A DNA stretch of 4,991 nt, taken from IMG/VR virus record IMGVR_UViG_2706794678_000008. One strand, given 5' to 3'. The stretch comes from a virus (Duplodnaviria; Heunggongvirae; Uroviricota; Caudoviricetes). The translations under genes were made by a program, and so were the position numbers. This document shows, piece after piece, positions 3 to 4,991 of this stretch. The notes beneath the pieces are model-generated. The model searched no databases. It saw only the letters and a list, made by a program, of their open reading frames with translations, and was not told the DNA's origin. The number at the start of each line of letters is the position of its first letter. The first letter of the stretch is position 1.

Positions 3-2748
3 TCAGAAACGAACGCATCATCAAGCGCCAGTAGCGCAGCTTCCTCGGCGACGGCGGCTGCAAATTCTGCGAAGGCGGCCAAAACGTCCGAGACGAACGC
101 CAGGTCTTCTGAAACGGCAGCGGGACAGAGTGCCTCAGCTGCGGCAGGCTCAAAAACAGCGGCTGCGTCGTCTGCCAGCGCCGCGTCAACAAGTGCCGGG
201 CAGGCCTCAGCCAGTGCCACCGCCGCCGGAAAATCGGCAGAAAGCGCCGCATCGTCTGCTTCAACAGCCACAACGAAGGCTGGCGAAGCCACTGAACAGG
301 CCAGCGCAGCAGCGAGGTCTGCTTCCGCAGCGAAGACATCCGAAACGAACGCGAAAGCGTCGGAAACAAGCGCAGAATCCTCAAAAACGGCTGCCGCATC
401 GTCAGCCAGTTCGGCGGCGTCATCGGCATCATCGGCGTCTGCTTCAAAAGATGAGGCGACCAGACAAGCGTCAGCAGCGAAGAGCAGCGCCACGACGGCA
501 TCCACGAAGGCGACAGAGGCTGCTGGCAGTGCGACGGCGGNNNNNNNNNNNNNNNNNNNNNNNNNNNNNNNNNNNNNNNNNNNNNNNNNNNNNNNNNNNN
601 NNNNNNNNNNNNNNNNNNNNNNNNNNNNNNNNNNNNNNNNNNNNNNNNNNNNNNNNNNNNNNNNNNNNNNNNNNNNNNNNNNNNNNNNNNNNNNNNNNNN
701 NNNNNNNNNNNNNNNNNNNNNNNNNNNNNNNNNNNNNNNNNNNNNNNNNNNNNNNNNNNNNNNNNNNNNNNNNNNNNNNNNNNNNNNNNNNNNNNNNNNN
801 NNNNNNNNNNNNNNNNNNNNCGGCGTCATCGGCATCATCGGCGTCTGCTTCAAAAGATGAGGCGACCAGACAGGCGTCAGCAGCGAAGGGCAGCGCCACG
901 ACGGCATCCACGAAGGCGACAGAGGCTGCTGGTAGTGCGACGGCAGCAGCTCAGAGCAAAAGTACGGCGGAATCTGCAGCAACGCGCGCTGAGACAGCGG
1001 CAAAACGGGCAGAGGATATTGCATCCGCCGTGGCGCTTGAGGATGCGAGCACGACGAAAAAGGGGATAGTACAGCTCAGTAGTGCGACTAACAGCACTTC
1101 CGAGTCACTGGCGGCAACACCAAAAGCCGTTAAGGCCGCGTATGACCTGGCTAACGGGAAATACACCGCACAGGATGCAACGACAGCACAGAAAGGGATA
1201 ATCCAGCTAAGCAGCGCGACCAACAGCACGTCTGAAACGCTGGCGGCAACGCCAAAGGCAGTAAAAGCAGCCAATGACAATGCTGAGAAACGTCTGCAGA
1301 AAGATCAGAACGGTGCGGATATCCCTGGCAAAGACACCTTTACGAAAAATATTGGTGCCTGCCGTGCCTTCGGTGGGTCAGTAAGCACAACAACAGGAAA
1401 CTGGACGACTGCACAGTTTATCGAGTGGCTGGATTCTCAGGGAGCATTTAACCATCCATACTGGATGTGCAAGGGTTCCTGGTCTTATGGCAATAATAAA
1501 ATCATTACTGATACTGGCTGCGGTAATATTCATCTCGCCGGAGCTGTCATTGAAGTAATGGGGATAAAGTCAGCGATGACGATCCGCATTACCACTCCGA
1601 CCACATCCAGCGGTGGCGGAACAACCAACGCCCAGTTTACCTATATTAATCACGGAACAGATTATTCACCTGGCTGGCGAAGGGACTATAACTCCAGAAA
1701 TAAGCCAACGGCATCAGAGATCGGGGCGCTACCGTCAGGTGGAACAGCAGTATCATCAGTTAATCTGGCTTCAAAAGGTCGGGTAGCCGCGCTGACAGAC
1801 AATACGCAGGGGGCAGCAGGTCTTGAGTTATACGAGGTGTATAACAACGGATATCCAACAGCGTATGGAAATATCATTCACCTGAAAGGGATGACAGCCG
1901 TTGGCGAAGGTGAGTTACTCATCGGCTGGAGTGGTACAAGCGGTGCTCATGCTCCGGCATTTATTCGTTCACGACGGGATACGACCGACGCAAACTGGTC
2001 GCCGTGGGCGCAGCTTTACACCTCGGCTCATCCTCCTGCAGAGTTTTATCCAGTCGGTGCACCAATCCCGTGGCCATCAGATACCGTTCCGTCTGGTTAT
2101 GCCCTGATGCAGGGGCAGACTTTTGACAAATCTGCTTACCCGAAACTTGCAGCCGCTTATCCGTCAGGCGTGATCCCTGATATGCGTGGCTGGACGATTA
2201 AGGGCAAGCCCGCCAGTGGTCGTGCCGTATTGTCTCAGGAACAGGATGGCATTAAATCGCACACCCACAGCGCCAGCGCATCCAGTACGGATTTGGGGAC
2301 GAAAACCACATCGTCGTTTGATTACGGCACTAAATCCACGAATAACACCGGGGCGCATACGCACAGTCTGAGCGGCTCTACAAGTTCAGCTGGGGCCCAC
2401 CAACATAGTCAGACTGGGCCCAGAACGAATAGCGGGAGTCAACCTACTGGAATGTTTCCGGCAGGGAGTACTCAAGTTAGCGGGACTAATCAGGTTGGTA
2501 TCAGTGGCTCATTAACCAGTGGCACCTCCCAATGGGTAGGTAAATCATCTTCAGAAGGAAACCATACACACTCACTGTCCGGCACAGCAGCATCTGCGGG
2601 TGCACACGCGCATACTGTCGGTATTGGTGCTCATACGCACTCTGTTGCGATTGGTTCACATGGACACACCATCACCGTTAACGCTGCTGGTAACGCGGAA
2701 AACACCGTCAAAAACATCGCATTTAACTATATTGTGAGGCTCGCATAA
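3..2748 (+). CDS. stf: Side tail fiber protein (lambda Stf-like), 5'-partial (gene begins upstream of window); reading frame interrupted by assembly gap 541-820
   Basis: Frame 3 is open without stops from position 3 to 540 and encodes Ala/Ser/Thr-rich repeats ([13 protein letters not shown]..., [21 protein letters not shown]...). After the gap the same protein continues in frame 1 (821-2748): the fiber motif [26 protein letters not shown] twice, a globular middle region, then a His-x-His-rich tip ending ...[31 protein letters not shown], stop TAA 2746-2748. The frame-1 Arg-rich translation before the gap in the ORF track (MPQLRQ...) is out of frame; the frame shift across the gap reflects an arbitrary gap length. 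Confidence 0.9.
415..944. repeat. Direct repeat flanking the gap: 415-538 and 821-944 (124 bp, 3 mismatches), coding the [21 protein letters not shown](S/G)[18 protein letters not shown] shaft repeat
   Basis: Direct comparison of the sequence on either side of the N run; the copies are offset by 406 bp (not a multiple of 3), so the true gap length and repeat copy number are unresolved. Confidence 0.85.
541..820. other. Assembly gap (280 N) inside the repetitive tail-fiber shaft coding region
   Basis: Uninterrupted run of n from 541 to 820, flanked on both sides by the same 124-bp sequence (415-538 and 821-944). Confidence 0.97.
1063..1272 (+). repeat. Two copies of a 26-aa phage tail-fiber motif G-I-[VI][23 protein letters not shown] (1063-1140 and 1195-1272), period 132 bp
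   Basis: Protein-level repeat with largely synonymous nucleotide divergence between copies; this motif is recalled from P2 gpH, lambda Stf and T4 fiber proteins. Confidence 0.8.
2361..2572 (+). other. Hypervariable block A of the fiber tip (encodes ...[64 protein letters not shown]...)
   Basis: Region where unit A and unit B lose nucleotide similarity; bounded by conserved His-x-His-containing flanks. Confidence 0.75.
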
Positions 2749-2750
2749 TG
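2736..2750 (+). promoter_or_regulatory. Shine-Dalgarno (GAGG) plus overlapping stop/start TAATG; translational coupling of stf to the downstream ORF
   Basis: GAGG at 2736-2739, 8 nt upstream of ATG 2748; TAA 2746-2748 shares one nucleotide with ATG 2748-2750. Confidence 0.6.
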
Positions 2751-3800
2751 GCATTCAGAATGAGTGAACAAGCACGGACCATAAAAATTTATAACCTGCT
2801 GGCCGGAACTAATGAATTTATTGGTGAAGGTGACGCATATATTCCGCCTCATACAGGTCTGCCTGCAAACAGTACCGATATTGCACCGCCAGATATTCCG
2901 GCTGGTTTCGTGGCTGTTTTCAACAGTGATGAGTCATCGTGGCATCTCGTTGAAGATCATCGGGGTAAAACGGTTTATGACGTGGCTTCCGGCGACGCGT
3001 TATTTATTTCTGAACTCGGTCCGTTACCGGAAAATGTTACCTGGTTATCGCCGGAAGGGGAGTTTCAGAAGTGGAACGGCACAGCCTGGGTGAAGGATAC
3101 GGAAGCAGAAAAACTGTTCCGGATCCGGGAGGCGGAAGAAACAAAAAACAACCTGATGCAGGTAGCCAGTGAGCATATTGCGCCGCTTCAGGATGCTGCA
3201 GATCTGGAAATTGCAACGGCTTATCCGTCAGGCGTGATCCCTGATATGCGTGGCTGGACGATTAAGGGCAAACCTGCCAGTGGTCGGGCCGTATTGTCTC
3301 AGGAACAGGACGGCATTAAATCGCATACCCACAGCGCCAGCGCATCCAGTACGGATTTGGGGACGAAAACCACATCGTCGTTTGATTACGGCACTAAATC
3401 CACGAATAACACTGGTGCGCATACCCATAGTTTAAGTGGCAGCACGAATGCAGCTGGTAATCACAGCCATAGAGATGGCCGTCGATTTAACCCCAGTGTT
3501 TTTAAAGATACTTATCAATATGGTTATACAAGCTCAGGTCAAAATACCTGGGGTGTACAAGGCTCAGTAGGTATGTCTACGGGGTGGTTAGCGAATACCA
3601 GTATAGATGGTAATCATAGCCATTCACTGTCCGGCACAGCAGCATCTGCAGGTGCACACGCGCATACTGTCGGTATTGGTGCTCATACGCACTCCGTTGC
3701 GATTGGTTCACATGGACACACCATCACCGTTAACGCTGCTGGTAACGCGGAAAACACCGTCAAAAACATCGCATTTAACTATATTGTGAGGCTCGCATAA
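2748..3800 (+). CDS. Chimeric ORF: tail fiber assembly protein N-terminal domain (about aa 1-157) fused in frame to a duplicated side-tail-fiber C-terminal tip (about aa 158-350)
   Basis: ATG 2748-2750 overlaps the stf stop (TAATG) with GAGG at 2736-2739. The N-terminal 157 aa ([44 protein letters not shown]...) are near-identical to the downstream tfa. From 3219 the ORF continues into [18 protein letters not shown]...[11 protein letters not shown], matching the C-terminus of the upstream fiber except for the hypervariable block. Stop TAA 3798-3800. Whether the fusion is a functional product or a by-product of the duplication is unknown. Confidence 0.7.
3425..3624 (+). other. Hypervariable block B of the duplicated fiber tip (encodes ...[60 protein letters not shown]...)
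   Basis: Counterpart of block A in unit B; 12 bp shorter, more AT-rich and richer in aromatic residues; the same His-x-His positions are retained at both edges. Confidence 0.75.
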
Positions 3801-3802
3801 TG
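3788..3802 (+). promoter_or_regulatory. Shine-Dalgarno (GAGG) plus overlapping stop/start TAATG; translational coupling into tfa
   Basis: Identical arrangement to 2736-2750, carried within the duplicated unit: GAGG 3788-3791, TAA 3798-3800, ATG 3800-3802. Confidence 0.6.
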
Positions 3803-4381
3803 GCATTCAGAATGAGTGAACAAGCACGGACCATAAAAATTTATAACCTGCTGGCCGGAACTAATGAATTTATTGGTGAAGGTGACGCATATATTCCGCC
3901 TCATACAGGTCTGCCTGCAAACAGTACCGATATTGCACCGCCAGATATTCCGGCTGGTTTCGTGGCTGTTTTCAACAGTGATGAGTCATCGTGGCATCTC
4001 GTTGAAGATCATCGGGGTAAAACGGTTTATGACGTGGCTTCCGGCGACGCGTTATTTATTTCTGAACTCGGCTCATTACCGGAAAATGTCACCTGGTTAT
4101 CCCCGGAAGGGGAGTTTCAGAAGTGGAACGGCACAGCCTGGGTGAAAGATGCAGAAGCAGAAAAACTGTTCCGGATCCGGGAGGCGGAAGAAACAAAAAA
4201 CAGCCTGATGCAGGTAGCCAGTGAGCATATAGCGCCGCTTCAGGATGCTGTGGATCTGGAGATCGCAACGGAGAAAGAAACCTTGTTGCTGGAAGCTTGG
4301 AAAAAGTATCGGGTGTTGCTGAACCGTGTTGATACATCAACTGCACCGGATATTGAATGGCCAGTAGCACCTATAGGGTAA
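3800..4381 (+). CDS. tfa: Tail fiber assembly protein (lambda Tfa family), full length, 193 aa
   Basis: ATG 3800-3802 overlaps the preceding stop (TAATG) with GAGG at 3788-3791. The protein [44 protein letters not shown]...[34 protein letters not shown] is recalled as closely similar to lambda Tfa and E. coli prophage Tfa proteins. Stop TAA 4379-4381. Confidence 0.92.
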
Positions 4382-4991
4382 ATTCGTAATGATTACCTAA
4401 ATACGTTATTCTTTTGTTAAAAAAGTGATTTTGCTATAGGTAGGGAGTATGTTCTTGGATTAAGAATAAAAAATCGCCATGAAAGAGCTTCATGGCGAGT
4501 ACATAAACGTACAAAATGTGATGAAAGTAGAGTGGCGTAAGCCACTATATTAAGATATGACAATAGCGAAGAAAAGTAAATAACATTTTATGGACGTTTA
4601 ATTGTTAATTATAAAAACTAGAGTGCCCGATATTGTTTATCTTGCTTTAAAATAATGTACTCAAACCAAATTTTTGAGCTAAAAGCTCAAATAATATAAA
4701 TGCAATAATAATGTTTAATAAGACAATTAGCTTGCTTTGTATTTTCATTTCGGAATACTGTTAAGTAACTTTGATGACCCTAACAATAGATCGGAATTTT
4801 CTTAGAGTCAATGGTCACTGTTTTTGCTTGCAAAGCAAATGTTTTGGTGGTTATAAGTCGTCTTAATATAGTCACGCATGCAACTTGTTCCATGCGGAGA
4901 TTAAAGATTGGAATATAACGCGAAGATGGAATTAAATTACATTTGCAATAATTAATTTATTATTACTCAATAATTACCGATATTATTATTG
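4382..4991. other. AT-rich non-coding region downstream of tfa; no ORF of 60 aa or more on either strand
   Basis: Abrupt GC drop immediately after the tfa stop; only very short ORFs (35 aa or fewer) without convincing ribosome-binding sites; several small hairpins (e.g. ttgagct-aaa-agctcaa at 4674-4690). Confidence 0.6.
4462..4497 (-). terminator. Putative rho-independent terminator for a leftward (minus-strand) transcript
   Basis: Perfect 9-bp stem cgccatgaa (4475-4483) / ttcatggcg (4489-4497) with 5-nt loop. On the minus strand the hairpin is followed by AUUUUUUAUU (complement of 4465-4474). On the plus strand the run is an A-tract upstream of the stem, so it is weaker as a tfa terminator, though bidirectional action is possible. 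Confidence 0.45.

Follow-up and report, generated by a model that had tools for sequence, protein, structure and literature searches.

A probable short-homology illegitimate joint between tfa and stf in a head-to-tail duplication of Rac-like lambdoid prophage sequence

The window, which is the whole 4,991-nt stretch of viral DNA analysed here (Caudoviricetes; IMG/VR record IMGVR_UViG_2706794678_000008), includes in order: (i) the 3' two thirds of stf, which ends at 2748, (ii) a chimeric ORF at 2748-3800, (iii) an intact tfa gene at 3800-4381, and (iv) an AT-rich flank downstream (GC 0.29 at 4401-4800). The features of the window are as follows.

541-820, no strand: scaffold gap of 280 N inside stf, with near-identical 126-nt flanks (415-540 and 821-946).
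2155-2748, + strand: C-terminal 197 codons of the full-length stf (tip variant 1), 100% identical to the S. sonnei locus L007.
2644-3019, + strand: left-hand member of a perfect direct repeat (376 nt), which covers the final 105 nt of stf and tfa nt 1-272.
2748-3800, + strand: chimeric ORF (from the ORF list and Pfam), Tfa residues 1-157 followed by the C-terminal 193 residues of Stf, with tip variant 2.
3020-3695, + strand: minimum segment assigned by locus comparisons to a second prophage type, comprising tfa nt 273-471, the joint and the stf C-terminal variant 2.
3195-3219, + strand: homeology patch ending at the joint, with the crossover within CGG 3217-3219 by parental comparison.
3696-4071, + strand: right copy of the perfect 376-nt direct repeat, with zero mismatches to 2644-3019.
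3800-4381, + strand: intact tfa, 193 aa, with a complete Caudo_TAP domain and an exact protein match to WP_052941040.1 of Shigella sonnei.

The chimeric ORF is open and in frame over its 350 aa, with tfa nt 1-471 (2748-3218) fused to the last 193 codons of stf (3219-3800). At its start, the ATG shares bases with the stop codon of the stf upstream (TAATG); at its end, the stop codon shares bases with the start codon of the intact tfa. Across the joint, here marked by a slash, window 3201-3234 reads ...gatctggaaattgcaacgg/cttatccgtcaggcg...; no N falls within 3205-3235, and the longest exact word common to tfa and stf at the joint is 5 nt. An earlier note on this DNA placed the break at 3218/3219, which is right to within 1-2 nt, as the crossover point is ambiguous across 3217-3219: G3219 is common to the joint and the window's own stf copy, CGG 3217-3219 is common to the joint and the real parental stf allele, and stf sequence proper begins at 3220 (CTTATCC). 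The same note read the left side as tfa and the right side as stf from 2155 onward. Both readings agree with the alignments, in which the left side is a copy of tfa starting at the ATG at 2748 (2553-3219 versus 3605-4271, 96.7%) and the right side is stf with its in-window counterpart at 2155-2748 (2144-2393 versus 3208-3457, 91.6%); the coordinates 4252-4271 given for the tfa match were off by one, the string being that of 4253-4271.

The two units on either side of the joint, 2155-3218 and 3219-4270, are not mutual copies. Their collar-side parts differ at 18 of 239 positions and the parts from 2553 and 3605 onward at 22 of 667, while the central tip regions (2394-2552 and 3458-3604) are unrelated. 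The second-type segment between the two perfect 376-nt repeats is at least 676 nt long.

The 280-N gap identifies the source of the window, a Shigella sonnei assembly of the series that includes GCA_001249355.1, GCA_001253995.1 and GCA_001256535.1, as a scaffolded draft. The 126-nt flanks of the gap overlap but are non-identical, the reading frame changes over the N run, and the loci L004, L005 and L015, which are contiguous here, carry the flank stretch once only. The gap of a sister assembly, L016, ends at the same stf position as that of the window. Other assemblies of the same series hold chimeric stf scaffolds, and the joint itself is known from this one scaffolded draft sequence; both observations weigh on the side of caution.

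The intact Tfa has an exact match on one recorded contig, from Shigella sonnei GCA_001249355.1 (L007). L007 is a single-copy stf-tfa locus that is 100% identical to window 1014-3019 and 3696-4991 and, thus, equals the window minus one repeat unit; all 22 differences between the two lie inside 3020-3212 and 3608-3695. Comparison with Escherichia coli TUM9757 (L008) gives the same picture for the segment 3020-3695. Read in natural gene order (3219-4071, then 3020-3218), the second unit is 99.0-99.3% identical to single-copy loci of many E. coli genomes. TUM9757 has 0 mismatches over 3020-3218 and 3219-3603, and L017, a Rac-like prophage locus of S. sonnei that adjoins sitABCD, has 0 mismatches over 3020-3218 and 3219-3793. 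The re-ordered unit is contiguous in both loci and, outside the 376-nt repeat core, shows 0 mismatches to L017 and 1 to L008. The only six differences of L017 fall within the 376-nt repeat, at the sites that separate the prophage types (2742-2906 and 3794-3958), where both copies in the window have the L007-type alleles.

Since L017 has no mismatch on either side of the joint, both sides are assigned by sequence identity to one parental stf-tfa pair, that of the second (Rac-like) prophage type, which co-resides in S. sonnei. The copies in the window itself, stf at 2155 and tfa at 4253, are thus not the parents that the earlier note had taken them for; it is the L017-type pair that matches at 100%, and the alignment to single-copy loci that the note had recommended for fixing the parental breakpoints places the break within CGG. 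Nor does the locus fit a picture of simple duplication. Judged by its alleles, the window is a three-part mosaic, of L007 type up to 2906-3019, of the second type up to 3696-3793, and of L007 type again. The type switches lie within stretches that are identical in both types, namely 2907-3019 (113 nt) and 3696-3793 (98 nt), and the right repeat copy is of L007 type at all six distinguishing sites. Two simpler histories were considered and rejected on these alleles: had a circularised 1,052-nt fragment entered an L007-type locus by one Campbell-type insertion, the right repeat copy would have Rac-type alleles at 3794-3958, and one illegitimate crossover between two unmixed parental phages is excluded by the six L007-type alleles found there. 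The mosaic needs at least three exchanges, and no intermediate was observed among the loci compared, a point that tells against the reading preferred below.

At the joint, the parents read TTGCAACGG/AGG and TTGCAGCGG/CTT, or at greater length ...GCTGCAGATCTGGAAATTGCAACGG/AGGAAG for tfa and ...TCTGCATACCCGAAACTTGCAGCGG/CTTATCC for stf. The parental match consists of 3 nt exact (CGG) within TTGCAnCGG (8/9) and a wider patch of 18/25. The loose likeness of stf and tfa noticed earlier is, thus, real, while its figure of about 15 of 21 is not reproduced: against the window's own stf copy the measured values are 13/21 (last 21 nt) and 16/24, the 18/25 being that against the true parent. When all tfa and stf positions were paired, a match of 18/25 was reached by two of 921,723 ungapped 25-nt pairings, both on the diagonal of the joint; pairings with at least 18/25 make up a fraction of 2.2e-6 and those with at least 8/9 a fraction of 1.5e-4. 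For comparison lengths of 9-30 nt the joint is always in the top 1.6e-4 of pairings, and other stf/tfa alleles gave similar microhomology statistics. By these fractions (1.5e-4 and 2.2e-6), the similarity at the joint exceeds that of a random joint.

Longer homology was looked for in related phages, as a long stretch shared by stf and tfa would have made the joint an ordinary crossover. MAFFT alignment of the joint with five stf/tfa alleles revealed no long shared stretch, and the single-copy loci compared (L001-L008, L016 and L017) have no tract common to stf and tfa. The best gapped local alignment of tfa to stf scores 25, compared to 22.9 +/- 2.3 for codon shuffles, and lies elsewhere than the joint. 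These alignments, together with the pairing statistics, bear out the earlier view that the joint has only short imperfect homology and is microhomology-mediated rather than the result of unequal crossover between long repeats; with no exact word above 5 nt at the joint, it is also not the kind of join that an assembler makes in shared sequence. An exact 11-mer, CCTGATGCAGG, occurs in stf (2103-2113) and in tfa (3152-3162) in the same codon phase, about 55-65 nt upstream of the joint in both genes, and is not the crossover site. It raised the possibility of true tfa-stf homology around the joint, which was rejected as the gapped alignment is no better than shuffles. The joint is, thus, on an exceptional patch, though not on the longest exact match. 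An exact microhomology of just 3 nt and a longer exact word nearby left unused both count against the duplication reading.

The joint is a singleton in everything searched. A 241-nt query spanning it found no match of at least 80% cover in 5,426 complete E. coli genomes and none in 50,697 phage records, the 29-mer at the joint (exact or degenerate) gave 0 matches in GTDB representatives, IMG/VR and JGI metagenomes, the exact 350-aa product is absent from protein records, and the order of a Tfa N-terminus followed by a Stf C-terminus occurs in none of 5.8 billion clusters and 1.84 billion representatives. The DNA collections searched left out complete S. sonnei chromosomes, and short-read assemblies would break near the joint, so that absence from them is weak evidence. 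In every single-copy locus compared, the two sequences of the joint stand apart. The recurrence of the same breakpoint in independent genomes, proposed earlier as a check, was thus not found in any collection searched, and this too speaks against the preferred reading. Two apparent leads were discarded. The six matches to a codon-degenerate EIATAYPSG pattern lie on GC-rich Acidobacteriota/soil contigs with no tfa/stf similarity and are due to chance. P0121, a 938-aa stf with two Collar domains, seemed a second case of tandem tips and was set aside as an artefact, its two parts being joined in a scaffold by a single N.

The joint unites non-allelic positions that are contiguous nowhere else in the sequences searched, and both of its sides come from one parental segment in head-to-tail order. 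It is best explained as the novel junction left when 1,052 nt were duplicated head to tail by short-homology illegitimate recombination in a Rac-like lambdoid prophage, a reading to which a probability of roughly 0.6 is given. The duplicated segment would consist of the 3'-terminal 581 nt of stf plus the initial 471-472 nt of tfa in an S. sonnei / E. coli Rac-like prophage. A 3' end in tfa probably annealed, or switched template, to a sister or second copy at a site in stf some 1 kb upstream, where the chance similarity is best (CGG exact, TTGCAnCGG 8/9, 18/25). The likely process would be replication template switching, within or between forks, or single-strand annealing, and the Rac-type background and lambdoid recombinases would make relaxed annealing plausible (PMC3945230). 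The placement of 3020-3695 in an L007-type locus could be due to two further homologous exchanges in the 98-113-nt identical stretches or, alternatively, to one multi-switch repair event of the type in the MMBIR model (PMC2621351) or to assembler mis-threading. The array is expected to be unstable because its 376-nt repeats can recombine and delete it; the product predicted from this deletion would be exactly L007, and the observed L007 locus matches it. A crossover in the collar repeats would instead give a tip-2 locus such as those of L004 and L005. The joint is probably real DNA, while the odds lean somewhat against the context drawn for it being correct. With the outer switches in shared sequence and the source a scaffolded draft, the context beyond the 376-nt repeats is insecure.

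The main competitor is an assembly artefact, in which the joint arose in silico or in a chimeric library molecule, or in which a real joint was mis-threaded through the repeats; this is possible but on the whole unlikely. Identical stretches collapse in a de Bruijn graph, and the prophage type switches exactly within identical stretches of 113 and 98 nt. The scaffolded short-read nature of the draft, with overlapping, non-identical flanks and a frame change at its 280-N gap, points the same way, as do the many N runs of sister S. sonnei assemblies, the sister assembly L015 in which a chimeric 938-aa stf is joined at a single N, and the singleton status of the joint. The 3-nt exact microhomology is within the range of chimeric reads (PMC3411829). 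By contrast, the joint has no N, unlike the true scaffold join of L015, and no common word above 5 nt, and k-mer or overlap merging cannot make such a joint; contig ends would have no reason to fall on the single best 25-nt similarity of tfa and stf, and random ligation chimeras would not give 8/9 or 18/25 (p about 1e-4 to 2e-6). Simple mis-threading via a collapsed node is likewise at odds with a repeat core that is L007-type twice and Rac-type never. In a weaker form of the artefact, the joint would be real, and the mosaic would be drawn from a genome with an unaltered L007-type locus and, in its Rac-like prophage, a plain tandem duplication.

The Caudo_TAP profile of Pfam (PF02413) is matched by the intact Tfa over 1-130 of 131 positions and by the fusion over 1-97 only, as the C-terminal 36 residues of Tfa are replaced by Stf sequence. 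According to PMC9608196, citing work on the Tfa of Mu, fibre binding is the role of the variable N-terminal domain of Tfa, and trimerisation is driven by its conserved helical domain at the C-terminus. On these assignments, the fusion would keep the fibre-binding domain and lose the trimerisation domain and, with its C-terminal domain gone, does not qualify as a complete Tfa. Its Stf portion is also incomplete. In the stf fragment, the Collar match (PF07484) covers residues 412-459 (window 2056-2199), and the Stf part of the fusion begins inside this match, at the position of residue 445; two thirds of the Stf Collar are missing, Pfam reported no Collar match in the fusion ORF, and the HxH-rich tip is not preceded by a complete Collar. 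Tfa(1-157)::Stf(C-terminal 193 aa) is in all likelihood a by-product with no function, and the joint is probably without function and an ordinary kind of event. The chance of an in-frame outcome at random is 1/3. The TAATG stop/start overlaps kept on both sides would preserve translational coupling to the intact tfa, which is a possible reason for tolerance of the array and not evidence of selection.

Two readings grant the array more significance. The first, which is highly improbable, views it as a genuine, expressed evolutionary intermediate, in which an illegitimate joint parks a second receptor-binding tip, RecA-type recombination resolves the array to either tip, and the fusion is retained for coupling or as a soluble or tethered tip. 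The second, with a chance that is very slim, holds the arrangement to be functional or selected, as stand-by cassettes for swapping the receptor-binding tip or as a useful expressed Tfa-tip fusion. Here, recombination between the collar repeats (2155-2393 and 3219-3457) would yield tip 2 and recombination between the 376-nt repeats tip 1, and the in-frame joint would be maintained for the translational coupling that it allows with the tfa downstream. In its favour are the native tfa ATG (TAATG) of the in-frame fusion and the native stf stop that overlaps the next tfa ATG, two tips that are wholly different in their central region, the natural single-copy loci that correspond to both predicted resolution products (L007 for tip 1, and L004 and L005, with the same backbone and flank, for tip 2), and the Tfa fibre-binding domain, which is kept according to Pfam and the domain roles given in PMC9608196. 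Against it, the arrangement did not recur in the collections searched, the joint breaks Collar at residue 445 (match 412-459) and deletes the conserved C-terminal Tfa domain, an in-frame join is expected by chance in one case of three, and neither a recombinase gene nor inverted repeats occur in the window. Resolution would also be irreversible, and ordinary homologous recombination explains tip exchange on this backbone with no need for a tandem intermediate. Ordinary unequal homologous crossover between long repeats common to stf and tfa has next to no likelihood. In its favour, megablast stf matches reach 23 nt leftward over the joint, to 3196, and MAFFT shows a second common word upstream (CCTGATGCAGG). 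Against it, this leftward reach is no more than the 16-18/25 patch, the single-copy loci compared have no common tract, and the gapped alignment is no better than shuffles.

The preferred reading, a short-homology illegitimate duplication, makes the joint a member, seen once, of a known class of short-homology illegitimate junctions. The MMBIR model reportedly covers complex events with multiple template switches, and the possible multi-switch history of the window is similar. In E. coli, rearrangements attributed to template switching are tandem direct repeats with imperfect homology of 4-15 bp at their borders, usually spaced by some hundreds to thousands of bp within one fork (Slack et al. 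2006, PMC1428787); the window joint is alike in spacing and junction type. It shares with the short-homology duplications of E. coli and Salmonella a head-to-tail repeat, a few identical bases within a slightly longer imperfect match, and the lack of long homology. By contrast, its 3 nt of exact homology are at or below the low end of the 4-15 bp of published junctions, and it is inside prophage genes, with no evident selection for amplification, in one draft sequence. In a Salmonella survey, candidate duplication junctions with less than 11 bp of microhomology failed verification and were inseparable from chimeric reads, while verified duplications had at least 11 bp (Sun et al. 2012, PMC3411829).

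For exchanges of lambda with the Rac and Qin prophages, the stf-tfa region is a known hot spot (De Paepe et al. 2014, PMC3945230). Similarly to the novel joints of phage mosaicism, the window joins non-homologous positions in the stf-tfa region of a lambdoid phage, and its flanking exchanges resemble relaxed homologous recombination in that they lie in short stretches of identity between diverged prophages (PMC3945230). The experiments of that study recovered only homologous exchanges (88-95% identity), and illegitimate events were concluded to be much rarer. Unlike those exchanges, the window joint is illegitimate and part of a duplication with a scrambled gene, and is no clean module swap.

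If real, the joint gives a clean and datable case of illegitimate joining where lambdoid phage genomes are most recombinogenic, with both parents and a likely resolution product known at 100% identity, and it bears on whether phage mosaics begin from non-homologous joins. Were the reading as an evolutionary intermediate true, it would be a live case of the model of mosaicism in which illegitimate recombination comes first and homologous tidying later. No consequence of the joint for host biology is evident. In practical terms, stf-tfa loci are unreliable in short-read Shigella/E. coli drafts, and a gene model such as that of a "tail fibre assembly protein" of 350 aa needs read support before it is propagated from the window.

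In invertase switching of the Gin/Cin/Pin/Min type, the cassettes lie between inverted crossover sites, next to a gene for a serine invertase. The window is like these regions (Mu, P1, e14 and p15B) in having two alternative fibre C-termini next to each other in one locus, each followed by tfa sequence; it is unlike them in that its cassettes are direct and the second is fused to tfa and not placed for use by the constant part of the fibre. In two related loci, L003 and L006, a pin-type recombinase gene follows closely after tfa. The window has no recombinase gene, with no ORF of at least 60 aa downstream of tfa, and no inverted crossover sites, its repeats being direct; Pin/Gin-type site-specific recombination at the joint was rejected on these grounds. 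By eye, the joint is also unlike the gix/hix crossover sites.

Decayed lambdoid prophages provide further in-frame illegitimate joints that place a C-terminal stf tip and/or tfa on an unrelated N-terminus, among them the deletion fusions gpA::stf (P0003 and P0016), Nu1::stf (P0002), ClpP-like::stf (P0010) and J::tfa (P0136). Several of these break in or beside the same Collar motif (...GYALMQGQ...) as the window joint. P0016 recurs on 480 contigs, while the window joint is unique. The decayed-prophage fusions are deletions with an upstream gene as the N-terminal partner; by contrast, the N-terminal partner of the window joint is the downstream gene tfa, an arrangement that is possible through duplication only.

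The following features were observed in the stretch:
541-820, run of 280 N inside the side tail fibre gene stf (region 415-946)
1040-1146 and 1172-1278, 107-nt direct repeat internal to stf, 74% identity
2644-3019 and 3696-4071, perfect 376-nt direct repeat composed of the stf end and the start of the tail fibre assembly gene tfa
2103-2113, 3152-3162 and 4204-4214, exact 11-mer CCTGATGCAGG common to stf and tfa
4498-4474, minus strand, strong terminator-like hairpin followed by TTTTTT

The N gap is bordered by two near-identical sequences of 126 nt each (415-540 and 821-946, 4 mismatches), and the gap of a sister assembly (L016) ends at the same position. The region looks like two contigs that overlap, come from distinct alleles of stf and were placed in one scaffold with a run of N between them. 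A real duplication of 406 nt at 415-946 is disfavoured, as the stretch that flanks the gap occurs only once in the contiguous loci L004, L005 and L015 and the reading frame of stf before the gap differs from that after it. An annotated protein of Shigella sonnei, CST25908.1 (P0121; GCA_001256535.1, CXEP01000296.1), is a scaffold chimera and an assembly artefact: this protein of 938 aa, deposited as a 'phage protein-like protein', has two Collar domains and derives from two stf genes that are joined via a single N at position 2051 of L015.

The 376-nt repeat is perfect within surrounding units that are otherwise 3-8% diverged, and both of its copies carry alleles of the L007-type prophage (a single-copy stf-tfa locus of S. 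sonnei); its identity therefore implies either recent gene conversion or a consensus effect of the assembly. The 107-nt repeat, which encodes two Phage_fiber_2 repeats, is an ordinary feature of stf. The 11-mer is the longest exact match of stf to tfa near the tfa-to-stf joint (3218/3219) and is read in the same codon phase in both genes (Leu-Met-Gln); the crossover site of the joint lies elsewhere.

The sequence beyond tfa (4382-4991) is an AT-rich flank (GC about 0.29) with no ORF of at least 60 aa, and it also follows tfa in Escherichia coli STEC316 (99.0%) and S. sonnei L007 (100%).

Many cases were also observed in which unrelated phage N-termini are fused in frame to the C-terminal tip of stf or to tfa. 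The N-terminal partners include Nu1, terminase gpA, a ClpP-like protease and the tail tip protein J, and the fusion proteins listed are P0002 (Nu1::stf), P0003 and P0016 (gpA::stf), P0010 (ClpP-like::stf), P0136 (J::tfa), P0001, P0135 and P0139. The stf tip and tfa end seem to be preferentially retained in decayed lambdoid prophages. The P0016 form is found on 480 contigs, and the break points of several fusions are within or adjoin the Collar motif.
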